Below are positions 233 through 63,945 of a DNA stretch of 64,000 nt, one piece after another. Each line of letters starts with the position of its first letter. Position 1 is the first letter of the stretch. The notes below the pieces were generated by a model, which worked only from the letters and a program-made list of their open reading frames with translations, was not told the DNA's origin and did not search any database. This DNA is from Verrucomicrobia bacterium UBA6982 (GTDB taxonomy: Bacteria > Verrucomicrobiota > Kiritimatiellia > RFP12 > UBA3636), in NCBI GenBank assembly GCA_002448475.1, contig DJYI01000049.1:5475-69474 (forward strand), written 5' to 3'. Both the position numbers and the translations under genes were made by a program.

Positions 233-2659
233 ATGAACATGCCCCGTTTGCATTCCCTTTGCGCCTCTCTCTGCGTCCTTTGCGCCGGTTCCGCCGCCGG
301 CGGCATCAAATGCGTCGCGCACCGCGGCGACTATCCCGACGCGCCGGAACATTCGATGGCCGCTTACCGCAACGCGGTGGAGCGCGGCAGCGAGGTGCTG
401 AAGCTCGACGTTCATCCGTCCAGGGACGGCGTGATCGTCCTTTCCCACGACCCTACCTTCAAGCGCACGATGGGCTGGGACGTCCGGATCCGCGATGTCA
501 CATGGGACGAAATCCGGCGGCACACCTATCTCCTGGGCGGGCAACCCACGCAGGAGCGCGCCATATCGCTCCCGGAGGCGCTTGAAGTCGTGAAGTCGAT
601 CCCGGAGTTTTGGATTGACTTCAAGTCCTTTGATCCGGACTTTGCCGAACGGGTGCTCGCGACCTTCGCGCAGTTTGGAATCGGCCAGGACCGCCTCATG
701 GTGGCGACCTACAATGGCGACGCCCTGCAATACTTTCGCAAGGCACACCCATCGATCCGCCGCATCGTCCACATCGACTTTTGCGAACAGGACGGCAAAT
801 GGTCCCTTTCCTTTGAGAGGCACTTGGGAATCCTGTGCCGAAAAGCCGCCGACGGCGAGCCGTATTCGCCGGAAGTGGCCGAACACATTCTCGAATGCGC
901 CCGGACGCTCGACCTCTGGGGCGTGAATCTAGGCGCCGTGCCGCAGGTCGTCACGCCGGGACTCGTTGCGCGGCTGCACGGCGAAGGGCTGGCCGTCTCG
1001 CTCGCGCTCGTCCACGATGCCGCGACGGCGCGCGTTTTCGCCAATCACGGCGGGGACTTCGTCGTGACGCGCGACCGCCGCGTTGTAGCGCCGATCATAT
1101 GCGCTGGACAAAGAAAGGAACTTTGCTGGCAATGCGGGCCCAACGCCCGCATCGAGGGGAATCTGCTCATTGCCGAAGTTCCGCCAGGCGAGGAGAAGAC
1201 CGGCGGTCTCGCCACGGCCGAGATCGACCTTTCGGCGTGGGATGGCAAGCCCGTCGGGGCGGAGATCGTCGCGAGCGGCGAGCGCATCGCGAAGCCGCTC
1301 CACTGGTACACCGGCCTCAAGTTCCAGTTCGAATACGAGGATTCGCTCTCCGGCGAGTGGAGCTACCCGAACACGCCCGGACGCCTCGGCGACTTCCCGG
1401 AGCAGACGATTCGCGTCTCCGACCTCGCCTCCGGCGTGTCGCGCACGAAGGCGCGCATGATGATCGGCCTCCAGGAGACGAGCGGCCGCGCCGTCTTCGA
1501 CCTCTCCACCCTCCGCATAGGCGACCCCGTGCCTCTCTGGCCCATCACGAACCAGAACCACCGGTGCGCGTACACTGGAAGTCTTAACGCGGAGGCGCAG
1601 AGACGCGGAGAAACGCAGAGTGACAATCTTGCAATCCTGTCTACTCAATCTTCGGGCGAAAACGCCTCTGCGCCTCTGTGTCTCTGCGTTAAAAAATTGC
1701 GCGGCGTCATGTCCCCGTCGCGGAAGGAGCCGCCGTTCATGACGGAGGCCGACTTCGACACGCTTCAGTCGTGGGGCGTCACCCTGATCCGCTACCAGAT
1801 GTCGAGCAACGACGTGCGGCCCGACGGCGAAGACGCCGTCGCGTGGTTCGACCGCTGGCTGGCACCCAAGCTCGACCACTTCGATTCGTTCCTCCTTCCC
1901 GAAGCGGTGAAACGCGGCATGAAGGTCGTCCTCGACCTCCACGAGCCCCCTGGCAGCAGGGACGAGTCAAACGAAATGCGGATGTTCCACGACGAGCGCC
2001 TGGCCACACATTTCGTCGAAACGTGGCGCCGCATCGCCGAGCGCTTCAAGGGGCGCGAGGGAATCTACGGCTACGACCTCGTCAACGAGCCGATGCAGAT
2101 CTCGGAGGCGGCGCCGGACTGCGATTTCTGGACGGTCCAGAAACGCGCCGCCGAGGCCATCCGCGAAATTGACCCGGACATTCCGATCCTCGTGGAATGC
2201 AACTCCCAGGACGACCCGGCGGCGTTTGCGTCCTTCTCGCCGCTGGACCTGACGAACATCATTTACGAAGTCCACATGTACAAGCCGCTCGCCTACACGC
2301 ACCAGGGCGTCATGTGGAAGCAGGGCGAACTGCGCACGTATCCCGACGAATCGAAAGGCTGGAACAAGGACTACCTGCGGGCGTGCCTCAAGCCGGTGCG
2401 CGACTTCCAGCTGCGGCACGGCGCGAAGATCTACGCGGGCGAGTTCAGCGCCGTCGCATGGGCCCCGGGGGCGGACCAATACCTGCGCGACTGCATCGAC
2501 CTCTTCGAGGAATACGGCTGGGACTGGACCTACCACGCCTTCCGCGAATCCGGCGTCTGGAACGTCGAATGGGAGGGACCGGACCGCGACTCCCTCGGCC
2601 CCGCGAAAGGCGACACCCCGCGCAAGAAGGCGCTGCTCGACGGCTTGCGGCGGGAGTGA
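233..2659 (+). CDS. Secreted fusion protein: N-terminal glycerophosphodiester phosphodiesterase (GDPD) domain, a beta-sandwich (CBM-like) middle domain, and a C-terminal GH5 (cellulase-family) glycoside hydrolase.
   Basis: Signal peptide MNMPRLHSLCASLCVLCAGSAAG. GDPD motif HRGDYPD...ENS-type (VAHRGDYPDAPEHSMAAYRNAVERG). GH5 acid/base motif GYDLVNEP and nucleophile motif YAGEFSA. The C-terminal two thirds are paralogous to CDS 8058..9761. The ORF track begins at 74 (GTG), but the signal peptide starts at Met 233/239. Confidence 0.8.
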   Translation: MNMPRLHSLCASLCVLCAGSAAGGIKCVAHRGDYPDAPEHSMAAYRNAVERGSEVLKLDVHPSRDGVIVLSHDPTFKRTMGWDVRIRDVTWDEIRRHTYLLGGQPTQERAISLPEALEVVKSIPEFWIDFKSFDPDFAERVLATFAQFGIGQDRLMVATYNGDALQYFRKAHPSIRRIVHIDFCEQDGKWSLSFERHLGILCRKAADGEPYSPEVAEHILECARTLDLWGVNLGAVPQVVTPGLVARLHGEGLAVSLALVHDAATARVFANHGGDFVVTRDRRVVAPIICAGQRKELCWQCGPNARIEGNLLIAEVPPGEEKTGGLATAEIDLSAWDGKPVGAEIVASGERIAKPLHWYTGLKFQFEYEDSLSGEWSYPNTPGRLGDFPEQTIRVSDLASGVSRTKARMMIGLQETSGRAVFDLSTLRIGDPVPLWPITNQNHRCAYTGSLNAEAQRRGETQSDNLAILSTQSSGENASAPLCLCVKKLRGVMSPSRKEPPFMTEADFDTLQSWGVTLIRYQMSSNDVRPDGEDAVAWFDRWLAPKLDHFDSFLLPEAVKRGMKVVLDLHEPPGSRDESNEMRMFHDERLATHFVETWRRIAERFKGREGIYGYDLVNEPMQISEAAPDCDFWTVQKRAAEAIREIDPDIPILVECNSQDDPAAFASFSPLDLTNIIYEVHMYKPLAYTHQGVMWKQGELRTYPDESKGWNKDYLRACLKPVRDFQLRHGAKIYAGEFSAVAWAPGADQYLRDCIDLFEEYGWDWTYHAFRESGVWNVEWEGPDRDSLGPAKGDTPRKKALLDGLRRE
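1584..1696. repeat. GC-rich palindromic (hairpin) element of about 113 bp inserted in frame in the linker of the GDPD-GH5 gene.
   Basis: Inverted repeats TTAACGCGGAGGCGCAGAGACGCGGAGAAACGCAGAG ... CTCTGCGCCTCTGTGTCTCTGCGTTAAAAAA. It encodes a roughly 40-aa segment (TGSLNAEAQRRGETQSDNLAILSTQSSGENASAPLCLCVK) that is absent from the paralog. Confidence 0.7.
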
Positions 2660-2769
2660 TGTTCGAGAATCCGAATGCAGTCGAATGCCGTCGATAGCGG
2701 TCGATGGCAATCGATTGCAGCCGGTAGCAGTCGATTGGGCTCATTGCCAGTTTTCCTTCCAACACCGTC

Positions 2770-5472
2770 ATGTCATGCATCCCCGTCGGCCTCGTCGCCG
2801 AATTCCTTGAAAATCCGATATGCCTTGAAACCCCGACGCCGCGCCTGTCGTGGCGTCTTGACGATTCGCGCACCGGCGCGAGGCAGACTGCATATCGCAT
2901 CGTCGCCGCGTCGTCCGCCGCCAGACTCGAAGCGGAGCATTGCGACATCTGGGACTCGGGCAAGGTTCGGAGCGAAAACACGCTGGACATCGTGTGGGGT
3001 GCAGGGCCGCTGCGTTCGCGCGCTTCCGTCTTCTGGCGCGTAATGGTCTGGGACAAGGACGGCAAGCCTTCGCCGTGGAGCGCCATCGCGCATTTCGAGA
3101 TCGGGCCGTTTGCGCCGGGCGACATCGCGGCATCGTGGATTGGCTCCGCGCGGCCCCGCACGAAGTCCGACATGCCCGTGCCGATGTTCCGCAAGGCGTT
3201 TTGCCTGCCCGCCGCGCCGGTCCGTGCGCGGCTCTACGCCACGGCCTTCGGAGATCTCGCAATGTCCGTCAACGGCCGCCCCTCCGGCGATGACCTCTTC
3301 GTGCCCGGATGGACCGACTACGGCAAGCGCGTCCCACTCGTCGCATGGGACGTGACGCCGCATTTGCGCGCGGGCGAAAACGTCCTTGGCGCGATGCTCG
3401 CAGACGGCTGGTTCGCCGGGACGATGGTCTGGCCGGACCACCGCAACCATTACGGGAGGCACACCGCCTTCATGGCGCAGCTGGAGGTCGAGTTCGCCGA
3501 CGGAACGCGGCAGGTCGTCGTCTCGGATGCCTCCTGGCACTGCACGGAGCGCGGCCCCATCCGCGCTTCGGACCACTACAACGGCGAAACCTACGACGCG
3601 AGGCTTGAAATGCCCGGATGGGACGCGCCTGGCTTCGCCGCGCGCGGCTGGCGTCGCGCCGCCGTCATCGAGGACCGCCCCAACGCGGCGCTCTGCGGCC
3701 GCATCGCCGGCCCGGTGCGCCGGCAGGAGGTCCTTGCGGCCCGGCGCCGCACCGAGCCGCAGCCGGGGCGCTATGTCTTTGACTTCGGACAGAATATGGT
3801 CGGCGTGCCGCGCATAGCCCTGAGCGGCAGCCCCGGAGCGAAAATCACGATCCGCTACGCCGAGATGCTCAATCCCGACGGCACGCTCTACACCGCCAAC
3901 TACCGCACGGCCAAATCGACGGACGTTTACATCTGCGGCTTGGCAGCCACAAAGAACACAAAGAGGCACAAAGGTTTTGCGGACTCCGTGTCCTCTGTGC
4001 CTGGAAATGAAACCTACGAGCCGCGCTTCACCTACCACGGCTTTCGTTATATCGAGCTTTCCGGCGATTTTTCCGCGCCGCCGGAATGCGGCGACGTCGT
4101 AGGCGTCGTTATCCATTCCGACATGGCGCAGACCGGCGCATTCGAATGTTCCGACCCTCTCGCCAACCGGCTCTTCTCCAACATCAACTGGGGGCAGCGC
4201 GGCAACTACTTCGAAGTGCCGACCGACTGCCCGCAGCGCGACGAACGTCTCGGCTGGCTCGGCGACGCGCAGGTCTTTATCCGCACCGCCGCCTACAATC
4301 GCGACATCGCGGCCTTCATGGAAAAGTGGATGCGCGACATCTCCGACGCGCAGCACGCCGACGGCGCCTTCACGGACATCGCGCCGGATGTCTTTCCCTT
4401 CGAGAACCACGGGCACTGCGGCTACGCCGACGCCGGCGTGGTCGTCCCGTGGACGATGTACCAGTTCTACGGCGATCTCGAAATCCTCCGGCGGCACTTC
4501 GACGCCATGGCGCGCTGGGTCGGCTGGTGGGAGCGCATCGCCGGGCCGGGGCTCGTCATCCCCTACAGGGGCGAAGGCAGCTGGCACTACGGCGACTGGC
4601 TCGCGGTCGATTGCCCCGTGGACGAAGACGGCCATCCGATCCGGGAAGGCGCCCCGACCCCGACCGACCTCCTCGCGACCGCGTATTTCGCGCGTTCCGC
4701 CGGCATCGTGGCCGACGCGGCGCGCGCCCTCGGGCGCAAGGCCGACGCGCGGCGGTTCGACGCGCTCCGCCGCCGCGTGGCAGCCGCCTACCGCCGGCAG
4801 TTCGTGACGCCCGGCGGACGTGTCGCGGGCGACACGCAGACCGGGTATCTCGTCACGCTCGGATTCGGGCTCGTGGACGACAGACAAACCGTGGCCCGCA
4901 TGGTGGACAGGCTTGCGTTCCTCGTCGAGTCGCGCGACTGCTCGCTCACGACGGGATTCCTCGGGACGCCGCTCGTCTGTCCCGTGCTGACGCGATTCGG
5001 CCGCGCCGATCTGGCCTACAGGATCTTCCAGCGCCGCAAGTATCCGTCATGGTATTTCCAGATACTCGACGGCGACGCCACGACGATGTGGGAGCGCTGG
5101 AACAGCTATTCCTCCAAGTCGGGCTTCGGCGACGCGAACATGAATTCCTTCAACCACTACGCCTACGGCGCGATAGGGGAATGGATGTTCGAAACGCTCG
5201 CCGGCATCTCTCCCATGGAGCCGGGCTTCCGTAAAATACGGTTCTCGCCCATCCCGGGAGGGGATGTGACCTGGGCAAGGGCATCGATCGCAACCAGACA
5301 CGGAACGGCGTCGATCCATTGGCGCAAACAGAAGGGCGGCCGCATCGCCGTCGATCTCGTCGTTCCGCCGTGCACAACCGCCGTGCTGGAACTGCCCGGC
5401 GCCGCGCCGCGCGAACTACAGGCGGGGCACCACCACATGACCGTCCAGGGCCTTCCGGGAAACTTCGCATAG
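2770..5472 (+). CDS. alpha-L-rhamnosidase, GH78, cytoplasmic (no signal peptide).
   Basis: N-terminal PRLSWRL motif and the GH78 catalytic-region signature EVPTDCPQRDERLGWLGDAQVF. Length 900 aa. Confidence 0.85.
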   Translation: MSCIPVGLVAEFLENPICLETPTPRLSWRLDDSRTGARQTAYRIVAASSAARLEAEHCDIWDSGKVRSENTLDIVWGAGPLRSRASVFWRVMVWDKDGKPSPWSAIAHFEIGPFAPGDIAASWIGSARPRTKSDMPVPMFRKAFCLPAAPVRARLYATAFGDLAMSVNGRPSGDDLFVPGWTDYGKRVPLVAWDVTPHLRAGENVLGAMLADGWFAGTMVWPDHRNHYGRHTAFMAQLEVEFADGTRQVVVSDASWHCTERGPIRASDHYNGETYDARLEMPGWDAPGFAARGWRRAAVIEDRPNAALCGRIAGPVRRQEVLAARRRTEPQPGRYVFDFGQNMVGVPRIALSGSPGAKITIRYAEMLNPDGTLYTANYRTAKSTDVYICGLAATKNTKRHKGFADSVSSVPGNETYEPRFTYHGFRYIELSGDFSAPPECGDVVGVVIHSDMAQTGAFECSDPLANRLFSNINWGQRGNYFEVPTDCPQRDERLGWLGDAQVFIRTAAYNRDIAAFMEKWMRDISDAQHADGAFTDIAPDVFPFENHGHCGYADAGVVVPWTMYQFYGDLEILRRHFDAMARWVGWWERIAGPGLVIPYRGEGSWHYGDWLAVDCPVDEDGHPIREGAPTPTDLLATAYFARSAGIVADAARALGRKADARRFDALRRRVAAAYRRQFVTPGGRVAGDTQTGYLVTLGFGLVDDRQTVARMVDRLAFLVESRDCSLTTGFLGTPLVCPVLTRFGRADLAYRIFQRRKYPSWYFQILDGDATTMWERWNSYSSKSGFGDANMNSFNHYAYGAIGEWMFETLAGISPMEPGFRKIRFSPIPGGDVTWARASIATRHGTASIHWRKQKGGRIAVDLVVPPCTTAVLELPGAAPRELQAGHHHMTVQGLPGNFA
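3946..4003. repeat. Short palindromic element of the CACAAAG-repeat family, inserted in frame in the rhamnosidase gene.
   Basis: GCCACAAAGAACACAAAGAGGCACAAAGG....CCGTGTCCTCTGTGCCTGG. Its 5' arm matches the intergenic element at 63825..63945. It encodes ...AATKNTKRHKGFADSVSSVPG.... Confidence 0.5.
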
Positions 5473-5547: not shown

Positions 5548-6606
5548 TTGAGGGCGCTGCACGCCCGTCCCCGAATGATCTCGATCGTCGAAGAACTCCG
5601 CACGAACCGCGAAAGCGGCGCAAAACGGCTTGAAGCCGAATACAAGGCCGGTCTCATGACTCTGGCCCGGCGCTTCCACGCCGACGAAGGCGACGCCGAG
5701 GAACTCGTCAACCGCACGCTGGCCGAAGTCATCGCGGGCATCGACGCCTATCTGGAGCAATCCGCCTTTTTCGGCTGGATGTGCAAGATCCTCGAAAACC
5801 AATACTCCAAGGACGTGCGTCGCAAGTCGAACAGGACAATTGTCGAGGCACCCGAAGCATTGGACGCGGCGGACGACGCGGATGCGGCCAACCGGATTTT
5901 CCGCGAAGTCGATGCGGCGATTCTCCGCGACGCCATCGCCACGCTTCCCGACGACATGAAGGACGCGCTCATGCTCCGCTATTTCATGGACATGCCCGTC
6001 GGGCGCGTGGCGAAAATCCTGTCGGTCCCGGAGGGCACCGTGAAGTGGCGCCTGCATTGCGCCCGGCTCACGCTCTCCGCCAAGCTCGGCGCCGCCGCGA
6101 AGAAGCCGGGCGGCAGGTCCGTCCTCCTCGCGCTGGCGCTCTGCGGCTTCGCGGCACTTGGCGCGGCGGTGTGGAACCTCGGGTGGGGCGAGCCGTCCCG
6201 GCGAGCCGACGCCCCCGCCTGGGCCTACGGCGAGGGGACGGGCGGGACCGGCGGGACGGGCGGGACCGGCGGGACGGGCGGGACCGGCCTTCAACCTTTC
6301 AACTTTTCATCCGAACAATCAACTGAACAACCCCAACAGGAAACCTCCTCTATGACCATACGCACACGTTCCGCGGCGCTGGGCGCCGCCTCCGCGCTGG
6401 CGCTTGCCAGTGCGCCTTCCGCCGCCTCCGGCGACGAATACCAGTTCATCGTCTCCGGCGATCCGGCCGCCGCCGCGACGGCGGGCGTCGTCGAGGCGGA
6501 ATCGACGGCCGGCCCGCTGGACGTCCGCCACCATGCCGTCGCCGAATCGCGCGCGATGGCCCTTTCGTCGATCAAAAACGGCAGTTTCGTCATTGTCGTC
6601 AGGTAG
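5548..6606 (+). CDS. ECF-type sigma-70 factor (regions 2 and 4) whose ORF continues, with no stop codon, through a TM segment, a GTGG tandem repeat and an intergenic-type octamer array into a small secreted-protein coding segment.
   Basis: Sigma region 4 helix-turn-helix LMLRYFMDMPVGRVAKILSVPEGTVKWRLHCAR. It is followed by the TM-like segment SVLLALALCGFAALGAAVW, then EGTGGTGGTGGTGGTGGTG, then LQPFNF (from the CTTTCAAC array), then MTIRTRS.... Confidence 0.6.
   Translation: MRALHARPRMISIVEELRTNRESGAKRLEAEYKAGLMTLARRFHADEGDAEELVNRTLAEVIAGIDAYLEQSAFFGWMCKILENQYSKDVRRKSNRTIVEAPEALDAADDADAANRIFREVDAAILRDAIATLPDDMKDALMLRYFMDMPVGRVAKILSVPEGTVKWRLHCARLTLSAKLGAAAKKPGGRSVLLALALCGFAALGAAVWNLGWGEPSRRADAPAWAYGEGTGGTGGTGGTGGTGGTGLQPFNFSSEQSTEQPQQETSSMTIRTRSAALGAASALALASAPSAASGDEYQFIVSGDPAAAATAGVVEAESTAGPLDVRHHAVAESRAMALSSIKNGSFVIVVR
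6232..6290. repeat. Tandem repeat of an 18-bp unit (GGGACGGGCGGGACCGGC), about 3 copies, encoding (GTGG)n.
   Basis: Direct reading of the sequence 6232-6290. Confidence 0.8.
6291..6320. repeat. CTTTCAAC octamer array (CCTTCAACCTTTCAACTTTTCA).
   Basis: The same motif array is found at 9781-9803, 9893-9920 and, reverse-complemented, at 63740-63773. Confidence 0.7.
6352..6606 (+). CDS. Possible separate small secreted protein (85 aa) with a signal peptide and a C-terminal ...NGSFVIVVR.
   Basis: ATG at 6352 is followed by the signal-peptide-like MTIRTRSAALGAASALALASAPSAASG. It is in the same frame as the sigma ORF with no intervening stop. The C-terminal motif is shared with four other secreted proteins. 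Confidence 0.4.
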   Translation: MTIRTRSAALGAASALALASAPSAASGDEYQFIVSGDPAAAATAGVVEAESTAGPLDVRHHAVAESRAMALSSIKNGSFVIVVR

Positions 6607-6638: not shown

Positions 6639-8009
6639 ATGAACCTCGCAAAACGTCTTTCGCTTCTCGCCTGCCTGTCCGCCGCGTCGGCCGCCACGGC
6701 CGTTGACGTGACCAACGTCAAGATGACCCAGAACACCGTCAACTGCAAGGTGACCATCACCTACGAACTCTCGGGACCGGCCGTCGTCACGCTCGACATC
6801 CTCACGAACGCCATTCCGAATGCTACGACCGGGTGGACATCCATTGGCGGCCAATACATCTCCAGCGCAACGGGCGCCGTATGGCGCAAGGTGACGGACG
6901 CCGACGCCGCGAACGGCGTCTGCACGATCACATGGAAGCCGGCCGATTCGTGGCTCGACGAGAGCGGCGAAGGCTTCAAGGTGGGCGACGGCTGCGCCAA
7001 GGCCGTCGTCTCGGCCTGGCCGCTCGACAATCCGCCCGACTACATGGTGGTGGACCTCTCCGCCTCAGCGCAGCCGAACACGCAACGCTACTACCCGGCC
7101 GTCGATTTCCTCCCCGGCGGGTTGCTCGACAACGGCGACTACCGCGAATCCTCGCTCGTGATGCGCAAGGTCCCCGCCGCCGGCGTCGAGTGGACGATGG
7201 GCAGCGTCGCCGAGCTTGGCCGCATCACTGCCAAAGAGGCGACGCACAAGGTGCGACTTGACGCCAACTACTACCTCGGCGTATTTCCCGTGACGCAGTC
7301 GCAGTGGGCACTCGTCCAGCCGAGCCGCCCGAATCCGTCATGCTTCCAATACGAGGCCGACAAAAAGTGGCGCCCCGTCGAATATGTCTGCTACAATGAG
7401 CTACGCCTCAGCAATTCAGAAACAAGCGGAGCGGCGACCTACTACTGGCCGAACCCTCCGCACGCCAACTCCTTCATTGGTCGTCTGCGCACGAAGACCG
7501 GCATCGCGTTCGACCTGCCGTCTGAGGCGCAGTGGGAGTTCGCCTGCCGCGCAGGGAACGGAGAGGGCAAGTGGGGCGACGGTTCGGACTACCTGTCCAA
7601 CACGACCGACGCCAACCTTGCGGCCCTGGCCTGCTACGGGCGCGCAGACATCCAGAACCAGGTGTCCGAGGGCAACACGACCTGGTCCGCCGCCGACGGC
7701 GGCACGATGCCGGTTGGCACCCACGCCCCGAACGCATGGGGCTTCTACGACATGAACGGCAATGTATTCGAGCCGTGCAACGACTGGTTCGAGAACAATC
7801 CGTCCGCGCATGGGGGAGCCGTGAACGTGGATCCCGCCAATCCCGCGAAAGACCTCACCGGCAACGCTGGCACATATCGTGTCTGGCGTGGAGGCTCGTA
7901 TCGCCACTCCGCCGCATCGTGCCGTAGCGCCTTTCGCACAGAGGGAATTTCCAACGGCCGCTACAACATCGCAGGCGTCCGCGTAGCGTGCCCCGCAAGC
8001 GCGGAATAA
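6639..8009 (+). CDS. Secreted protein with a C-terminal formylglycine-generating-enzyme (FGE/SUMF1)-like domain.
   Basis: Signal peptide. Motifs HKVRLDANYYLGVFPVTQSQW, WEFACRAG, YDMNGNVFEPCNDW and RVWRGGSYRHSAASCRSAFR are typical of the FGE-sulfatase domain family. A good RBS (AAAGGAG) lies upstream. Confidence 0.8.
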   Translation: MNLAKRLSLLACLSAASAATAVDVTNVKMTQNTVNCKVTITYELSGPAVVTLDILTNAIPNATTGWTSIGGQYISSATGAVWRKVTDADAANGVCTITWKPADSWLDESGEGFKVGDGCAKAVVSAWPLDNPPDYMVVDLSASAQPNTQRYYPAVDFLPGGLLDNGDYRESSLVMRKVPAAGVEWTMGSVAELGRITAKEATHKVRLDANYYLGVFPVTQSQWALVQPSRPNPSCFQYEADKKWRPVEYVCYNELRLSNSETSGAATYYWPNPPHANSFIGRLRTKTGIAFDLPSEAQWEFACRAGNGEGKWGDGSDYLSNTTDANLAALACYGRADIQNQVSEGNTTWSAADGGTMPVGTHAPNAWGFYDMNGNVFEPCNDWFENNPSAHGGAVNVDPANPAKDLTGNAGTYRVWRGGSYRHSAASCRSAFRTEGISNGRYNIAGVRVACPASAE

Positions 8010-8057
8010 GGCTGAAAGGCTTTCGAAGCCCCTGCGGCGATCATCCGAACCCAAGAC

Positions 8058-9761
8058 ATGAAAACAATATTCCTTCTCGCCGCCGGCTTCTCCCTGGCGG
8101 CGGGCGCCCCGGCGTGCGCCGCCGGGCAGGATACCCGCCTCGCCGAACACGGCGGCCGCGTCTGGCGGCTCTCGCCGGGCTGCCGCATCGACGGCGACCA
8201 GCTCACGGTCTCGATCCCGGAGGGCCTTTACCCGCAGACCCAGTGGGCGCGGACGGACATCGACCTCTCGCCGTGGGAGGGGCGCGGCTTCGAGGCGCAC
8301 GTCCGGGTCCGCGGCGAGGACATCGCCACGCCGACGCAGCCGTGGCTCGGCTTCAAGTTCATGCTCAGCTGGCGCGACCGGTTCACGGGCGCCATGCGCT
8401 ATCCCGGCGCCGGCGCGCCGCTCGGCGCGTTTCCGTGGCAGGACGTCTCGTTTCGCCAAATGGGCTGGTTCCGCGGTGCGGATGGCCCCGGCACACTCCA
8501 TCTCGGGCTTCAGGGAACATCCGGCACCGTCGTCTTCGACCTCTCGTCGCTCCGCATCGGCGATCTCGCGCCGATCTGGCCCGTCACGAACCAGAACCAC
8601 CGGTGCGAGTATTTCGCACCGAAGGGAATGTTCACAAATCTCAAGTGTTCACAAATCGACAATGCCACAAATAACAATTGCGGCGCGCCCGGCGGTCGCG
8701 CCCTACCGGTAGGGGCCGACCGCCGGGCGGCCCGCAATTTTGATTCGCCATTTATGAACAATGATGAACAATTGTCATTTGTGAACAATGCCGCCAAGCG
8801 GCTCGCTCCCCTAAGGGGCGTGATGTCGCCAAGCGGCCGCGACATGAACGAGGACGACTTCGCGACGCTCGCCTCGTGGGGCGCGACGCTTCTGCGCTAC
8901 CAGATGGTGCGCGACTGGCACGGCGTGGGAACCAACGCCGACCTCGAAGACTACGACCGCTGGCTGGACGGCAAGCTCGACCATGTCGAGGGCGTCGTGC
9001 TGCCGCTCGCCCGGAAATACGGGCTGAAGGTCGCCATCGACCTGCACGTCACGCCCGGGGGACGCGACGCCTCGCACGAAATGAACATGTTCCACGACGC
9101 GACATTCGCCGGCCATTTCGTCGAATGCTGGCGACGCATCGCGCGGCGCTTCAAGGGCAACGGCGACGCGATCTACGGCTACGACCTCTGCAACGAGCCG
9201 CAGCAGCAGCGCGCGGCGCCGCCGGGAATGGACGGCTGGAACCTCCAGCGCCGCGCCGCCGAGGCGATCCGGGAAATCGACCCGGAAACGCCGATCATCG
9301 TGGAATGCAACGCCAACGACGCGCCGGACGGCTACCGCAACCTCTCGCCGCTCACCCTGACGAACGTCATCTACGAAGTCCACATGTATGGGCCCGGCGA
9401 CTTCACGCACCAGGGGATCCAGGGGATGTCGATGGCGCGCTGCCGCTGGCCGGACGCGTCGCGCGGATGGGATGCTGGCTTCCTGCGCTCCGCGCTCGCG
9501 CCAGTGCGCCAGTTCCAGCTGCGCCACGGCGCGAAAATCTACGTTGGCGAGTTCAGCGCCGTCGCGTGGGCGGAGGGCGCGGACATCTGGCTCCGCGACA
9601 TCATTTCCGTTTTCGGGGAATACGGCTGGGACTGGACCTACCACGCCTTTCGCGAATGGCGCGGATGGAGCGTCGAGCACGAAGGCCCGGACATCGACCA
9701 CATGGCGCCGTCCGCCGACAACCCGCGCAAGCGCGCCCTTCTGGAGGGCCTGCGGCGCTGA
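8058..9761 (+). CDS. Secreted CBM-like plus GH5 glycoside hydrolase, paralog of the C-terminal part of 233..2659.
   Basis: Signal peptide MKTIFLLAAGFSLAAGAPA. GH5 motifs GYDLCNEP and VGEFSAV. Alignable to ORF1 across the beta-sandwich and the TIM barrel. Confidence 0.8.
   Translation: MKTIFLLAAGFSLAAGAPACAAGQDTRLAEHGGRVWRLSPGCRIDGDQLTVSIPEGLYPQTQWARTDIDLSPWEGRGFEAHVRVRGEDIATPTQPWLGFKFMLSWRDRFTGAMRYPGAGAPLGAFPWQDVSFRQMGWFRGADGPGTLHLGLQGTSGTVVFDLSSLRIGDLAPIWPVTNQNHRCEYFAPKGMFTNLKCSQIDNATNNNCGAPGGRALPVGADRRAARNFDSPFMNNDEQLSFVNNAAKRLAPLRGVMSPSGRDMNEDDFATLASWGATLLRYQMVRDWHGVGTNADLEDYDRWLDGKLDHVEGVVLPLARKYGLKVAIDLHVTPGGRDASHEMNMFHDATFAGHFVECWRRIARRFKGNGDAIYGYDLCNEPQQQRAAPPGMDGWNLQRRAAEAIREIDPETPIIVECNANDAPDGYRNLSPLTLTNVIYEVHMYGPGDFTHQGIQGMSMARCRWPDASRGWDAGFLRSALAPVRQFQLRHGAKIYVGEFSAVAWAEGADIWLRDIISVFGEYGWDWTYHAFREWRGWSVEHEGPDIDHMAPSADNPRKRALLEGLRR
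8626..8790. mobile_element. MITE-like element (TGTTCACAAAT-TIR family, about 165 bp) inserted in frame in the GH5 paralog linker.
   Basis: 5' end ATGTTCACAAATCTCAAGTGTTCACAAATCGACAATG. 3' end ATGAACAATGATGAACAATTGTCATTTGTGAACAAT (inverted). GC-rich palindromic core GCGCGCCCGGCGGTCGCGCCCTACCGGTAGGGGCCGACCGCCGGGCGGCCCGC. The ends are similar to the TIRs of the composite element at 10876..11380. It encodes 61 extra aa at the same linker position where ORF1 carries a different element. Confidence 0.7.
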
Positions 9762-9780
9762 CGTAGAGGCCTGCGCCCCA

Positions 9781-9920
9781 TGCGCCGACAACCTTTCAAC
9801 CGTTCAACCGGATTTATTGGGACAGACCCCGTAGATTCAAAAATGTTGCCAGTGTGAGACTGTTGCCAATTGCCAATCCCAATTCCAATTGGCCTTTCAA
9901 CTTTTCAACCTTTCAACTGT
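9781..9920. repeat. Intergenic region, relatively AT-rich, bounded by CTTTCAAC octamer arrays (CAACCTTTCAACCGTTCAACC at the 5' end; CCTTTCAACTTTTCAACCTTTCAACTG at the 3' end). Internally it has CCAATTG repeats.
   Basis: Direct reading. The 27-mer at 9893-9919 is identical to the reverse complement of 63740-63773. Confidence 0.7.
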
Positions 9921-9923
9921 TTA

Positions 9924-10733
9924 ATGTTTTCCATCGACCACGACCTGCATTGCCACACGCACCTCTCCGGTTGCTCCAACGACCCGGAGCAGACGCCGGA
10001 AAATCTCCTCGCGTTCGCCACGGCGCATGGCTACGCCGCGATGGCCTTCACCGACCACTTCTGGGACGCGCCGGCCGTTCCGGGGTCGGAAGGCACCTAC
10101 CTCGACGGCTGCGGTCTGGAACACGTGTCGGCCGATCTGCCCCTGCCCGACGGCGGTCCGGTGCGTCTTGTCTTCGGCTGCGAGACGGAACTTTCGTCTG
10201 CGAGGGTTCTCGGCCTTGCTCCGGAACATTGCGACCGCTTCGGATTCATCGTCATTCCCCCCAACCATTTCCACATGACGGGATTCGTCCGCCCGGCGGA
10301 GTGCGCGACGGCGGAACGGCGCGCCGAACTTCTGGTCTCTCGCCTGGAAACCGTGCTTGGCATGTCTCTGCCCTGGGAGAAAGTCGGGATCGCGCACCTC
10401 AACTGCGGACTCATGTTCGCCGACGGCGACCTCGGGGCGGTGCTTCGCGCCGTTCCGGAGGACCGCTTCCGCGACGCCATGCGCGGCTTTGCCGAACGTG
10501 GCGCCGGGATCGAACTCAACATGGCGAGCTTTGACGCGAACCGCCGGCGCGGCGTCTCGCCGGAAGACGCCCTGCGCCTCTTCCGCTTCGCCCGGGACGA
10601 AGGCTGCCGCTTCTATCTGGCAAGCGACGCCCACCACCCGGCCGGACTCGAACTCGTCCCCGGCATCGCGTCAGAGATCGTGGACGCGCTTGATCTTGAC
10701 GCCCGCCACGTTTACAGGCTGCCCGAGCCCTGA
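9924..10733 (+). CDS. PHP-domain (polymerase/histidinol-phosphatase family) metal-dependent phosphoesterase.
   Basis: N-terminal MFSIDHDLHCHTHLSGCS...AFTDHF is the PHP-domain His motif. The ORF track starts at 9870 within the repeat; the Met at 9924 is the likely start. Confidence 0.7.
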   Translation: MFSIDHDLHCHTHLSGCSNDPEQTPENLLAFATAHGYAAMAFTDHFWDAPAVPGSEGTYLDGCGLEHVSADLPLPDGGPVRLVFGCETELSSARVLGLAPEHCDRFGFIVIPPNHFHMTGFVRPAECATAERRAELLVSRLETVLGMSLPWEKVGIAHLNCGLMFADGDLGAVLRAVPEDRFRDAMRGFAERGAGIELNMASFDANRRRGVSPEDALRLFRFARDEGCRFYLASDAHHPAGLELVPGIASEIVDALDLDARHVYRLPEP

Positions 10734-10768
10734 TATCCGATTGTGTCGCGCGCTTCCGCTCGTCGTCG

Positions 10769-10875
10769 CTACAGCCCGACGACGTGAATCGTCTTGCCGC
10801 CAAAAGCCACGTCGCGGGTGAAAAGCCGCTCGTCCCAGGACTTGCCGGAGTCGTCGTCGAAGACCGGCATCCAGC
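10769..10875 (-). pseudogene. 3' fragment (last ~35 codons) of a second copy of the AAA-ATPase/PD-(D/E)XK gene (paralog of 18658..20232).
   Basis: About 105 bp are roughly 90% identical to 18658-18765, including the stop codon. Homology ends abruptly at the left TIR of the inserted element. Confidence 0.7.
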
Positions 10876-11380
10876 TCGAAGAATTGTTCACAATTGACAA
10901 TTGAGACAAATGTTCACAAATGGGAAATGACAAATTCATCTTCTGTCCTGTTCGTTAAGATTTCGCCGGGCCGTTGTCACGCTTGCGTAGAAAATCTTTA
11001 TCAATTCTTCGGTTTCCTGCAATACGTGCGACACGAGATTTTGATCGGCATAATTCCTCATCGCGATGATACGAAGCCACATTCTGGTTTCAATGAGTTC
11101 CTTGAGCGCGATATTTGTCTTGTGGGCGAAATCTTTGCGCGATTCCGGAACGCACGCCTCGGCATAATTGGCTGCAACCGACGTGGCTGCTCGAAACAAT
11201 TGGTCCTGGAGGTGCGCTTTCCCGATTTTGGAAACCATGGATTCGCAAACATCGATGGCCGCTGCTGCAAAAGCCGCTACCCGGAATTCAATTTCGGAAG
11301 ACGTTAGCATGGCAAATTGCGTTTTGTTATTTGTGAACAATTGTTTCAATTGAAAATTGTGAACACTCTAGCAGAGCGCG
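10876..11380. mobile_element. AT-rich (about 45-48% GC) ~0.5-kb element with ~50-bp imperfect terminal inverted repeats of the TGTTCACAA family. It carries a four-helix-bundle gene and replaces the middle of an AAA-ATPase gene copy.
   Basis: Left TIR ATTGTTCACAATTGACAATTGAGACAAATGTTCACAAAT. Reverse complement of the right TIR AGTGTTCACAATTTTCAATTGAAACAATTGTTCACAAAT. Low GC compared with the flanks. Flanked by the N- and C-terminal fragments of the ATPase paralog. Confidence 0.7.
10936..11310 (-). CDS. Four-helix-bundle protein of the 23S rRNA intervening-sequence / DGR Avd-like family (PF05635/TIGR02436-like).
   Basis: Motifs LQDQLFRAATSVAANYAEACVPESRKDFAHKTNIALKELIETRMWL match the family consensus (L..Q..RAA.S...NIAEG ... 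S.K.F..........E....L). Length about 124 aa from ATG 11310; the ORF track's TTG at 11349 lies inside the TIR. Confidence 0.75.
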   Translation of the reverse strand: MLTSSEIEFRVAAFAAAAIDVCESMVSKIGKAHLQDQLFRAATSVAANYAEACVPESRKDFAHKTNIALKELIETRMWLRIIAMRNYADQNLVSHVLQETEELIKIFYASVTTARRNLNEQDRR

Positions 11381-11577
11381 ACTGCGTCGCCCTTGGCGTT
11401 GATTTCGCGGACGAGCGCCTTGACGGTTGTCGTCTTGCCCGTCTGTCGCGGCGCGTGGATGACGAAATACGTCTCCTGCTCGACAAGGCGCCGAATTTCC
11501 GGCATCCGGTCGAGAGCGGGCAGCATGTAATGCTTGGCGGGAAAGCAGGGGCCCGCGACGTTGAAGAACTTTTCCAT
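11378..11577 (-). pseudogene. 5' fragment (first ~66 codons) of the second AAA-ATPase/PD-(D/E)XK gene copy, ending at the element junction.
   Basis: Encodes MEKFFNVAGPCFPAKHYMLPALDRMPEIRRLVEQETYFVIHAPRQTGKTTTVKALVREINAKGDAVALC*, near-identical to the N-terminus of 18658..20232. The upstream region also shares the TGGTAGCAT -10 element. Confidence 0.7.
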
Positions 11578-11743
11578 TTGAACATCCGTGTCGCCGACAC
11601 GGAGAATGCTACCATAATGCCACCCCCGGGACAACAGGCCGCACGCGGGCGCGCTGTTGGCGAAGGCCGCAGCGGTTGGCGGCGGCCGTCGAAGTCGTTG
11701 CCGGAGGCGTTGCGGACGCGGGCGCCGAGGTCGCTGAAGGGTG

Positions 11744-18657: not shown

Positions 18658-20232
18658 CTACAGCCCGACGACGTGGATGGTCTTGCCGCCGAACGCCACG
18701 TCGCGGTTGAAGAGCTTTTCGTCCCAGGACTTGCCGGAGTCGTCGTCGAAGACCGGCATCCAGCCTTCGGCGAGACCGAGGGAACCGAGGTAGTCGGCGA
18801 GCTGCGCGTAGGACTTCTCCCCGGCGAAGTTCTTCGAGGTCTTGACCTCGATCGCGTAGCGCTTGCCCCGATACTCCACGCAGAGGTCGAGGCGGCGGGA
18901 CCCCAGCGCCATTTCGCGCAGGATGTGCCCGTCGCCGTTCGTGACGCGCTGCAGGAACGCCATGAGGACGAGGTGCGGCAGCGCCTCCTGGTAGTCGTGA
19001 GGGTTGCGGAGGACGCCGCTGTTTTCGCGCCAGAACGCCTGGAACGCCGCCATGAGTCCGGGCATGTCGAGACCGTCGGGCAACGCCCAAGGCGTCTGCG
19101 GAACGGACTTCACCATGTCGTCCTGCGTATCGCGGGTGAGATAGCGCCCGATGATTTCCGCATACATCCGGTTGGACGGGACGAGTTCGCGCAAGTCGTT
19201 TTCCCGCATGAGGCCAAGGTCGATGACGAACCGGTAGTCCTCGCTGTCACGGGATACCGGGCTGGCGCCGCCGAAGATGACGGGTTCGACCACACGCCGG
19301 ACGCGCGGCTCGCGGAGGCGCTCCATGAGGCTGTCCACGTGCGTGTCGCGGCGTCGAATGATCGTCTCCTTGGCCGTTTCCACGTCGGCCGCGGTAATCG
19401 GGGCCGCGTAGTCGAAGGAGTGGATTTCCTCGACGCACTCGCGGGCGATGGCATTGACGAGCCAAGGTTGGCCGCGCGTGAACTCCCAGACCCGATCGAG
19501 CGCTTCCTTTTCGAAGACCTGCCCCGTCGCCACGGTGTGCTGCGCGTAGAGGGCGGCGATCTCAGCCTCCGTGAAGTTGCGAAGCATCAGGTCCTTGGTG
19601 ATGATGTTGAAGGGGCTGATCTGGCCGCGCGACTCCCCGTCGGGGCGAATCTGGGCCTTGTAGTCGCGCACGTCCAGCATCCCGATCAGGGCGATGGAGG
19701 CTGGGAACGGAACAGAATCGCGGTTTACGTATCCGTCGCGAAGCTGGCGCAGGAAGGAGATCAGCACATTTCCCGCGAGGCAGTCCGCCTCGTCAAAGAA
19801 CACCACGAGCGGCTTCCTTACGCGGCGGCAAAGCGAGGTCAAAACCTCCCTGACGGCGAGGGACTCGGCGGCATACGTCGGGCCGGATTCCTCGACGCGC
19901 GGCAGTTCGCCGGATTCGGGAAAGTATTCCGGGAGCGTGTTCCGGGCCGCGAAAAGGAGCAGCCCGCGGATGGCGTCGGCGGAGCGGGCCGAATCCGTGG
20001 CGTTCTGGAGCGTTTCCAGCGTGCAGTAGAGCGCAACCCTTTCCCCCTTGGCGTTGATTTCGCGGACGAGCGCCTTGACGGTTGTCGTCTTGCCCGTCTG
20101 CCGCGGTGCGTGGATGACGAAATACGTCTCCTGCTCGACAAGGCGCCGAATTTCCGGCATCCGGTCGAGAGCGGGCAGCATGTAATGCTTGGCGGGGAAG
20201 CAGGGGCCCGCAACGTTGAAGTATTTTTCCAT
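18658..20232 (-). CDS. AAA-ATPase (PF09820-like) with a C-terminal PD-(D/E)XK nuclease-like domain (PDDEXK_9-like).
   Basis: Walker A HAPRQTGKTTTV. C-terminal RLDLCVEYRGKRYAIEVKTS (D...E.K). 524 aa. Confidence 0.8.
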   Translation of the reverse strand: MEKYFNVAGPCFPAKHYMLPALDRMPEIRRLVEQETYFVIHAPRQTGKTTTVKALVREINAKGERVALYCTLETLQNATDSARSADAIRGLLLFAARNTLPEYFPESGELPRVEESGPTYAAESLAVREVLTSLCRRVRKPLVVFFDEADCLAGNVLISFLRQLRDGYVNRDSVPFPASIALIGMLDVRDYKAQIRPDGESRGQISPFNIITKDLMLRNFTEAEIAALYAQHTVATGQVFEKEALDRVWEFTRGQPWLVNAIARECVEEIHSFDYAAPITAADVETAKETIIRRRDTHVDSLMERLREPRVRRVVEPVIFGGASPVSRDSEDYRFVIDLGLMRENDLRELVPSNRMYAEIIGRYLTRDTQDDMVKSVPQTPWALPDGLDMPGLMAAFQAFWRENSGVLRNPHDYQEALPHLVLMAFLQRVTNGDGHILREMALGSRRLDLCVEYRGKRYAIEVKTSKNFAGEKSYAQLADYLGSLGLAEGWMPVFDDDSGKSWDEKLFNRDVAFGGKTIHVVGL

Positions 20233-63647: not shown

Positions 63648-63739
63648 ATTCCCGTGTTTGCCTCCCCGCATGGGTGTGACCAAACTTTGTCAGAACGCAA
63701 AGGACGCAATCGCGCGGGCCGATGTGTCCGGGGCTTTGC

Positions 63740-63773
63740 CCAGTTGAAAGGTTGAAAAGTTGAAAGGTTGATA
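63740..63773. repeat. CTTTCAAC octamer array on the minus strand, identical to 9893-9919.
   Basis: Reverse complement: CCTTTCAACTTTTCAACCTTTCAACTG. Confidence 0.7.
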
Positions 63774-63824: not shown

Positions 63825-63945
63825 AGCCACAAAGAACGCAAAGAACACAAAGTTTCTGGAAAATGGCGGCTTGTGGCATAGCCGCCACGGCGGCGTCCGA
63901 TGCCACGGCCACCATTTTCCTAGCGCTCTTTGCGTTCCGCTGCAT
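63825..63945. repeat. Intergenic nested-palindrome element of the CACAAAG-repeat family.
   Basis: GCCACAAAGAACGCAAAGAACACAAAG ... GGAAAATGG[CGGC..GTGGCAT..ATGCCAC..]CCATTTTCC ... CTCTTTGCGTTCCGC. The 5' arm matches the rhamnosidase insert at 3946. Confidence 0.6.

Follow-up and report, generated by a model that had tools for sequence, protein, structure and literature searches.

An in-frame palindromic miniature in the linker of a GH5 gene of a Kiritimatiellia bacterium, and the PF05635 element family to which it probably belongs

The stretch analyzed here, referred to as the window, comprises 64,000 nucleotides of Verrucomicrobia bacterium UBA6982 (Kiritimatiellia; assembly GCA_002448475.1, contig DJYI01000049.1, positions 5,475 to 69,474), with an overall G+C content of 64%, and the closest matches of its proteins are found in Kiritimatiellae metagenome-assembled genomes (MAGs). 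It harbors a gene for a secreted two-domain enzyme of the GH5 family whose interdomain linker contains, in frame, a palindromic insert of about 160 bp. A full-length element with matching arms is found downstream of that gene, and a one-armed remnant lies in a gene for a glycyl radical enzyme (GRE). Both in-gene segments had been pointed out in an earlier note made from the sequence alone. In what follows, loci fetched for comparison are designated by L numbers and orthologous proteins by P numbers. The features on which the argument rests are the following.

8058 to 9761, plus strand: secreted two-domain GH5 gene, whose product has a beta-sandwich at its N terminus (residues 27-168), joined by a linker to a PF00150 TIM barrel (residues 253-527), with the insert at about residues 191-244.
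8627 to 8789, no strand assigned: miniature palindromic element that resembles a MITE (for miniature inverted-repeat transposable element), lying in frame in the GH5 linker, recognized by its sequence, iterons, palindrome and fold.
8627 to 8679, plus strand: left AT-rich arm, carrying TGTTCACAAAT twice, at 8629 and 8646, and CACAAAT at 8666.
8680 to 8735, no strand assigned: GC-rich palindromic apex core, GCGGCGCGCCCGGCGGTCGCGCCCTACCGGTAGGGGCCGACCGCCGGGCGGCCCGC, a separable repeat also present in L045 and L002.
8736 to 8789, minus strand: right AT-rich arm, with inverted iterons at 8750 and 8777.
10883 to 11367, no strand assigned: full-length element of the family, with compound inverted repeats (TGTTCACAATT..TGTTCACAAAT at each end) around a single gene.
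10936 to 11310, minus strand: that gene, of the PF05635/TIGR02436 four-helix-bundle family (23S rRNA intervening-sequence protein, S23p), 124 amino acids (aa) from an ATG at 11310; the listed open reading frame (ORF) extends to 11349.
35217 to 37508, plus strand: PFL-like GRE gene (PF02901 and PF01228), 763 aa.
35711 to 35772, plus strand: one-armed family remnant in the GRE gene, encoding ..PVFTNDNRSQVSNGTNVNIEP.., followed by a small GC-rich hairpin at 35800-35835.

The GH5 ORF encodes 567 residues, of which 253-527 match PF00150, and its two-domain layout is shared by hundreds of full-length relatives, among which the length of the linker is variable. In an 18-ortholog alignment, the window protein has a long private segment between ..VTNQNHRCEY.. 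and ..LRGVMSPSGRD... Compared at the DNA level with L001, the closest ortholog (96% protein identity outside the insert), the window gene is longer by exactly 159 bp, which corresponds to 53 codons without a stop; at the site, L001 reads ..GGAATGTTCACAAATC-CCGATCTG-CCCCTAAGGGGC.., with 8 nt where the window has 167. The figure of 61 added residues given in the earlier note is close to the excess of about 60 over short-linker orthologs and is reduced to 53 codons when L001 is the reference. The frame is open and free of stops through the whole element, as that note had described, and the G+C content at third codon positions is 0.85-0.90 on both flanks in the same frame. Outside the insert, the protein is 94-96% identical to its closest orthologs (L001, L003). 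An AlphaFold2 model (predicted TM-score 0.76) is confident for the beta-sandwich and for the barrel from residue 253, and its local confidence (pLDDT) drops below 50 for residues 190-248, between the two confident domains and coincident with the insert, so that the insert-encoded stretch models as disordered. To judge from the sequence, it is probably transcribed and translated with the gene as about 53 extra disordered linker residues; the tryptic peptides predicted across the insert regions include GMFTNLK, ALPVGADR, and NFDSPFMNNDEQLSFVNNAAK.

The insert is made of about 53 AT-rich nt on each side and of an inner GC-rich palindrome of 56 nt. Positions 8624-8792 form an imperfect palindrome with its center, ACCGGT, at about 8707, inverted-repeat arms at 8624-8651/8765-8792 and a GC core at 8670-8710/8705-8745; between these limits, and over the element only, the G+C content falls to 0.53-0.58. 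The 11-mer iteron TGTTCACAAAT is present at 8629 and 8646 on the plus strand and, inverted, at 8750 (with one mismatch) and 8777. With at most one mismatch allowed, it has nine matches in the window, versus 0.30 expected, a number that was reached in 0 of 100 shuffles. All nine are confined to three places, namely 8629-8787, both ends of 10885-11365, and 35713. When aligned, the arms of the GH5 copy, the two arms of the element at 10883-11367 and the GRE segment at 35711-35772 show a common consensus, ATTGTTCACAAATGnCAATTGTTCACAAATCnCAAATGnCAAT; the kinship between the GH5 miniature and a larger element near 10876, proposed in the earlier note, is thereby borne out. As RNA, the GH5 element folds into one long hairpin (-81.9 kcal/mol versus -50.4 +/- 3.9 for shuffles, z = -8.0). 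It is smaller than about 500 bp, encodes nothing by itself, has terminal inverted repeats (TIRs) at both ends and is able to form a long hairpin, as is expected of a MITE. The same element is present, in the opposite orientation and with flanks 95-100% identical, in an independent public MAG contig (L120, CAMOSH010000013.1), which excludes an assembly artefact.

The hairpin could not be assigned to a known RNA family, as the only Rfam hit for the GH5 element was a sub-threshold match of its GC hairpin to a miRNA precursor (33.9 versus 100 bits), with no family above threshold. In the 8000-11600 region, no terminator-like site was revealed by an intrinsic terminator scan, and the only promoter-like site lies inside the PF05635 gene and is at chance level. 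A small hairpin precedes the element in the GH5 coding sequence at 8598-8622 (CGGTGCGA-GTATT-TCGCACCG, encoding HRCEYFAP). It is kept in L001, L003, L004, and L006 with a compensatory change (GGTGCGC-N5-GCGCACC), which may merely mirror the conservation of the RCxY peptide.

The larger element at 10883-11367 is 485 bp long, and its sole gene matches PF05635 (69 bits), TIGR02436 (88 bits) and the structure 2RLD of the PDB (E = 6e-12). It had been taken for a composite element; its relationship to the miniature stands, and the idea of a composite transposon does not, as it carries the PF05635 gene only. The same element is found at the same site in L003. Among the fetched loci, which are not whole genomes, the gene enclosed by full-length TIRs is always a PF05635 four-helix bundle of 121-137 aa and nothing else, and no transposase was found between or beside TIR pairs. 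Distant TIR pairs were also considered as possible borders of a transposase gene, and the sole candidate, at 840/2260 in L057, was rejected, as it encloses part of a GH38 gene.

The spread of the family was determined in one genome per GTDB species, using the two-iteron pattern TGTTCACAAWT-N6-15-TGTTCAYMAW. At least 116 stretches match, with dozens of distinct flanks. Among the matches listed, most of those with high G+C come from rumen Kiritimatiellae-type MAGs (RUG10619, RUG14821, RGIG6720, CAMKJU, CAMOSH, RGIG10161, and others); the other matches are of low G+C and come singly from unrelated taxa. With at least 15 copies in RUG10619, at least 11 in RUG14821, at least 9 in CAMOSH, and at least 7 in CAMKJU, the family is multi-copy in rumen Kiritimatiellae. 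Copies in which both ends match are palindromes of 93-126 bp that start with TGTTCACAAAT and end with ATTTGTGAACA, usually with AT on both sides, and full-length members measure about 460-490 bp.

Two loci show how the short copies originate. A full 457-bp element in L041 and L132 is replaced at the same locus in L010 by a 177-bp derivative that keeps the 5' end of the PF05635 gene (flanks 90-96% and about 78% identical), and the full element of L127 has as its counterpart a 126-bp derivative in L028, at the same site and with the same junction sequences. A 258-bp derivative, L029, has kept both ends of the gene, and pieces of it thus remain between the arms in L029, L010, and L028. Since full elements and internally deleted derivatives occupy the same sites, the miniature copies descend from the transposase-free parent by internal deletion. 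The family is thus dispersed, multi-copy and generated by internal deletion, and parent and miniature are related in the classical manner of an autonomous element and its MITEs, apart from the lack of a transposase in the "autonomous" partner.

The fetched high-GC loci contain 71 element regions. Approximately 11 of these, including 7 of the about 34 complete copies, are enclosed in long ORFs whose two flanks both show a coding signature. According to Pfam, every in-gene copy that was checked sits between or outside domains, in frame and without a stop. Such copies were found between the N- and C-terminal GT4 domains in L008, between DUF4838/GH67C and Metallophos domains in L039, upstream of the six-hairpin domain of a rhamnosidase in L045, in the linker of two GH5 paralogs in L050 and L119, and between the middle and C-terminal domains of a GH38 enzyme in L057. 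As most frames of the copies carry stops, the notion that the family is "designed" to be coding was rejected, and the in-frame state of the intragenic copies is best explained by selection after insertion, which implies that the host genes are translated through the insert. In the last-named locus, the alpha-mannosidase gene (1253-3718, minus strand) carries a TGTTCACAAAT half-element directly followed by a miniature of a second family with TGTTGCCA arms, both in frame at that interdomain position.

The GC-rich core, which the earlier note had considered as part of the element, does occupy its apex and is nonetheless a separable repeat. In L045 it is found with the AT arms plus about 30 extra nt at the apex, in frame in another gene, and in L002, a 77%-identical GH5 ortholog, it occupies the same linker site without the AT arms. 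These and the window copy are the only three seen in all, every one in coding frame and with the same reading (..RALP..GAD.RAAR..). The core is unique within the window, so that it was discarded as a common window repeat.

Hairpin-in-hairpin nesting, of which the GC core at the apex of the AT arms is one instance, is common in these genomes. The miniatures in L036, L051, L072, L078, L095, L098, L108, and L110 (RUG10619, RUG14821, CAMKJU, RGIG4394) lie at the apex of a larger palindrome, ..CTCAAAAATAACTTGAACAC..|element|..GTGTGCAAGTTATTGTTGAG.., which is either a longer variant of the element or the result of nested insertion into another hairpin repeat.

The nearest relatives provide some information on the age of the GH5 insertion. 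L001 has retained the left terminal TGTTCACAAATC of the element, and L003 (94% identical) its right terminus GTGAACAAT. Since both genomes keep terminal sequences of the element, the insertion probably predates the split of the three genomes. The simplest reading of the sequences is that the common ancestor of the window genome, L001 and L003 would already have had the element, and that two of the three lineages would then have lost almost all of it by independent deletions, which are expected across a long hairpin. The distant short-linker orthologs P0013, P0015, P0017, P0029, and P0103 are without any insert. The alignments proposed in the earlier note thus do delimit lineage-specific segments, with short-linker GH5 and 715-aa GRE orthologs lacking them, and the peptides of the AT-rich arms were not recovered in unrelated taxa; their presence there is what the note had named as speaking for ancestral loops. 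A clean absence of the GH5 insert applies to the distant orthologs and not to L001 and L003, which keep scars of 9-12 nt in place of clean empty sites.

In the GRE, 48 residues are added exactly at the remnant relative to the commonest ortholog length of 715 aa, and the 715-aa orthologs read ..KVRAARRKFADDAYAVEL.. / ..LLEKVRAARRKFADDAYAVELMEAEEQ.. without an insert. The first 20 or so extra residues (PVFTNDNRSQVSNGTNVNIEP) are encoded by 35711-35772, which aligns with one family arm, in agreement with the remnant of about 60 bp and 20 residues described earlier; the rest of the segment includes a small GC hairpin shared with P0127-P0129. Further decayed forms of this arm are found in the orthologs P0122, P0126, P0134, and P0168, and dozens of others have unrelated repeat-derived peptides at the same position, e.g., AKNAKSAKENPLNPVNPVK..SASLRLCV. 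The site is a graveyard of several repeat families, and we infer that the same process left the window segment in a surface loop, as a decayed relic with a single arm. One of these other families is also represented elsewhere in the window: CACAAAGAACGCAAAGAACACAAAG, at 63830-63860, belongs to a repeat seen as an in-frame insert (AKNAKSAKE..) in many GRE orthologs, e.g., at position 1975 of L126.

Altogether, these data make it probable that 8627-8789 is a non-autonomous palindromic miniature of the PF05635 element family, placed in frame in the GH5 linker, and that it persists there by a selection filter. According to this mechanism, only in-frame, stop-free insertions at structurally permissive places would escape purifying selection. 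Several observations weigh against this interpretation. When joined flanks were compared by BLAST with all fetched DNA, no clean empty site was found, and only the scarred L001 and L003 span the junction. The AT..AT that borders most intergenic copies, and that is possibly part of the TIR, is absent on the left of the in-gene copies. Frames are open across the copies in 22 of 168 cases, versus 9.4 by shuffling, and most frames contain stops. By analogy with the stems of 23S rRNA intervening sequences (IVSs), a hairpin with a 60-bp stem in the mRNA could be open to cleavage by RNase III (PMC4990558). Lastly, the occupation of the same few dozen nt in three GH5 paralogs, and in a large number of GH5 and GRE orthologs, is not readily accounted for by a selection filter alone.

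The last point leads to an alternative, in which the repeated occupancy would be due to a true specificity for target sites and the GH5 linker and GRE loop would be insertion hot spots. We regard it as possible, if somewhat doubtful. The window GH5 protein and two paralogs from the CAMOSH MAG, the species representative nearest to the window (95-100% identical at this locus), share 42-52% identity pairwise, and a TGTTCACAAAT copy is present at the homologous position in all three genes. The arms of these three copies are 76-80% identical mutually, no closer than to unrelated copies; as they are far less diverged than the host paralogs, separate insertions are favored. In addition, other large in-frame hairpins with tandem-repeat arms of about 7 nt occupy the GH5 linker in L004 (3560-3650) and L006, both with GTGACGA.. 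arms, and in L005 (3540-3660), with GACACGC.. arms. The additional arm families present in GH5 and GRE orthologs, GTGACGA, GACACGC, AATCCTGT, and GCAAAGAAC, have few copies in the fetched DNA. The inserts described in the earlier note are real and are not isolated events: both sites hold repeats of this family or other hairpin repeats in orthologs and paralogs. Also in favor of targeting are the different repeat-derived inserts at one site in dozens of GRE orthologs and the nesting of hairpins, many copies being placed at the apex of a larger palindrome and the GC core at that of the AT arms. The same is true of the diverged PF05635 elements described below, which abut one and the same junction in an ATPase family. 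The 23S IVSs, too, are found again and again at a few helix tips (those of helices 9, 25, and 45). This recurrence at helix tips, which is documented for helix 45 (PMC4990558), points in the same direction.

Hairpins are present 7-9 nt upstream of both window copies. Insertion beside GC hairpins was nevertheless rejected as a general rule, as the flanks of 115 elements were AT-richer (GC 0.49 versus 0.63) and less structured than 466 control windows, and no conserved target motif was identified, both of which count against target specificity. Ancient insertion followed by homogenization among copies through gene conversion, or the passage of a high flux of insertions through a permissive-site filter, might also account for the pattern.

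An RNA-level role is improbable. In this view, the hairpin would be retained for its action in the mRNA, where attenuation or cleavage by RNase III would tune the expression of the two gene halves or uncouple one from the other, and the peptide would be a by-product. Its great stability (z = -8), the cleavage of parent-class elements by RNase III in 23S rRNA, at the first heptamer repeat of the stem (PMC4990558), and the presence of structurally similar, unrelated hairpins at the same site in GH5 orthologs are all compatible with this idea. However, an mRNA that was always cut would leave nothing to maintain the open frame, whereas every in-gene copy is in frame and free of stops; moreover, close relatives have deleted the element without replacement, there is neither a terminator-like site in the region scanned nor an Rfam family above threshold, and most copies are intergenic. 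Finally, the variable linker length of the GH5 family and the long chance ORFs of high-GC genomes might suggest a fast-evolving native palindromic linker or a decaying GH5 pseudogene left open by chance, which is very unlikely given that the same arms occur at dozens of unrelated loci and around the PF05635 gene, that the G+C content drops over the element only and the excess is exactly 53 codons, and that both domains are 94-96% identical to those of orthologs and confidently modeled.

How a miniature of the PF05635 element family would move can only be suggested. The copies might be mobilized in trans by some enzyme that recognizes the iteron arms, our tentative preference. That the PF05635 protein itself binds the iterons or the hairpin and promotes insertion or maintenance is a rather unlikely proposition, and recombination or gene conversion between copies, combined with hairpin-mediated replication slippage, is a somewhat weaker candidate still.

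In the protein collection, 495 homologs of the window PF05635 protein were found, most of them on contigs of less than 3 kb, as is expected if repeats break assemblies. Several of the corresponding gene calls begin or end with arm-encoded peptides (LFTN, IVHK, RFVN). Among the PF05635 genes fetched from metagenomes with enough flank, 50 of 69 have at least five inverted shared 8-mers between their 140-nt flanks, versus 0 of 40 for control flanks taken 300 nt further out. TGTTCAC(A/C)AAT arms surround proteins 59-98% identical to that of the window, AATGTTGCCAATGTGGAAATGTTGCCAAT arms surround a clade 47-50% identical to it, and TGTCCACAAACTCCAAATG, TGACAAAAACTCCAAGTGAGCAC, and ATTGACATTGACC arms surround other PF05635 proteins. 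The AATGTTGCCAATGTGGAAATGTTGCCAAT repeat is also present in the window, as the solo arm at 9844-9900. This co-variation of protein and arms shows that the two travel together, and does not in itself imply that the protein recognizes the arms. An rRNA location was rejected for these relatives, as an Rfam search of 40 related PF05635 loci found rRNA in none of them (0/40).

It is tempting to generalize, although we hold what follows to be doubtful: PF05635 genes with clade-specific iteron arms might be widespread, transposase-free small mobile elements of which the 23S IVS is a special case, with the protein recognizing its own iterons or hairpin, promoting insertion or retention, and preferring certain sites, i.e., hairpin apices, the ATPase position, and linker or loop codons. 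If this were true, preferential entry would explain the repeated hits on rRNA helices and on the same protein linkers.

Two further features of the window relate to elements of this kind.

9844 to 9900, plus strand: solo arm of a second PF05635-element family, with TGTTGCCA iterons (AAATGTTGCCAGTGTGAGACTGTTGCCAATTGCCAATCCCAATTCCAATTGG), in the GH5-PHP spacer.
10769 to 10873, minus strand: C-terminal 34 codons of an AAA-ATPase-like gene split by the PF05635 element.

The second (TGTTGCCA) family is represented by full elements and miniatures of about 100 bp in L182, L187, L199-L206, L055, and L057. Tandem TTCAAC(C/T)TT repeats (CAACCTTTCAACTTTTCAACC..) are present in the spacers at 6290-6330, 9790-9815, 9896-9935, and 63735-63770 of the window and in the CAMOSH loci L096, L119, and L120; between 9790 and 9935, they lie as direct repeats on either side of the TGTTGCCA arm. 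As for the split ATPase-like gene, its N-terminal 68 codons are at 11368-11574 (minus strand), and nothing else of it is left; an intact paralog of 524 aa is encoded 7 kb away, at 18658-20232 (minus strand). Diverged PF05635 elements in L127-130, L140-146, L154, L157, L173, and L195 abut the same ..GWMPVFDD.. junction of this ATPase family, which points to a preferred target or else to an association of very old date.

In-frame palindromic insertion is already known, and what is new here is the transposase-free PF05635 parent, the clade-specific iteron arms and the reuse of sites. A search of the open-access literature, in itself weak evidence, yielded no description of a dispersed PF05635 family outside rRNA with miniatures in protein genes. 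The present data extend in-frame palindromic insertions to a free-living, high-GC gut lineage, the rumen Kiritimatiellae, and to the linkers of carbohydrate-active enzymes. The function of the S23p/PF05635 protein and the mobility of IVSs have been open questions for thirty years, and a dispersed, recently active family, with full and deleted copies at the same sites and arms that differ between clades, is better material for testing them than single rRNA copies. Such repeats also have practical consequences, as they break metagenome assemblies and yield odd low-complexity peptides (LFTN, CSQI, FVNN, NPVNPV, SASLRLC) in predicted proteins.

The Rickettsia palindromic elements (RPEs), with which the earlier note had aptly compared the insert, are about half intragenic, as far as the available accounts go (Ogata et al., 2000, 2002; PMC10969869, PMC3184786). 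According to these accounts, they resemble the present family in being palindromes of about 100-150 bp with many dispersed copies, a sizeable fraction of which are in frame at structurally tolerant positions and add a peptide. In keeping with this, the in-gene copies described here lie in ORFs without breaking the frame, at fold-compatible positions, and the GH5 and GRE inserts are absent from orthologs of other lineages. In the same accounts, however, RPEs have no known protein-coding parent and are read as a conserved peptide, whereas the present family has a PF05635 parent, the frame used varies, and about one fifth of the complete copies are intragenic. Their host has a reduced intracellular genome, in contrast with the high-GC, free-living gut anaerobe considered here.

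In-frame MITEs have also been reported in other bacteria, including QMITE1/2 of Coxiella, BOX/SPRITE of the pneumococcus, ERIC/YPAL of enterobacteria, the Anabaena MITEs and the Correia elements of Neisseria (PMC5896051, PMC3184786, PMC10969869). Like the present copies, bacterial MITEs are short, non-coding hairpin derivatives bounded by TIRs; they lie mainly between genes and occasionally fuse in frame with a gene, the protein of which is then extended or interrupted. Classical MITEs derive from a parent insertion sequence with a transposase and show target-site duplications, whereas the only parent found here has no transposase. The 56-bp GC core, for its part, resembles repetitive extragenic palindromic (REP) sequences and bacterial interspersed mosaic elements (BIMEs) in that it is a stand-alone imperfect palindrome that recurs, in L045 and L002. 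It differs from those high-copy palindromes of 20-40 bp, which go with a REP-associated tyrosine transposase (RAYT, or TnpA-REP), in having three copies, all coding, in being nested at the apex of another element, and in that no RAYT gene was seen.

The closest parallel to the parent element comes from the IVSs with an S23p/PF05635 ORF in the 23S rRNA of Leptospira, Coxiella, Xanthomonas, and Brucella (PMC4990558). These have in common with it a PF05635 gene, a length of about 430-490 bp, a single ORF between inverted repeats, and stems made of short tandem repeats (here TGTTCACAAAT/CACAAAT); the element at 10883-11367 has both the gene and the inverted-repeat stem, and the GH5 copy has the stems only. 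In Coxiella, the stem contains three or four GACAGAT heptamers, and RNase III cuts at the first repeat (PMC4990558). IVSs have been proposed to be mobile, with the ORF serving mobility, an idea described as unproven where it is cited (Ralph and McClelland, 1993, cited in PMC4990558). They differ from the present family in that they sit in rRNA, whereas the copies in the window lie in protein genes or spacers and belong to a dispersed, multi-copy family with many miniatures.

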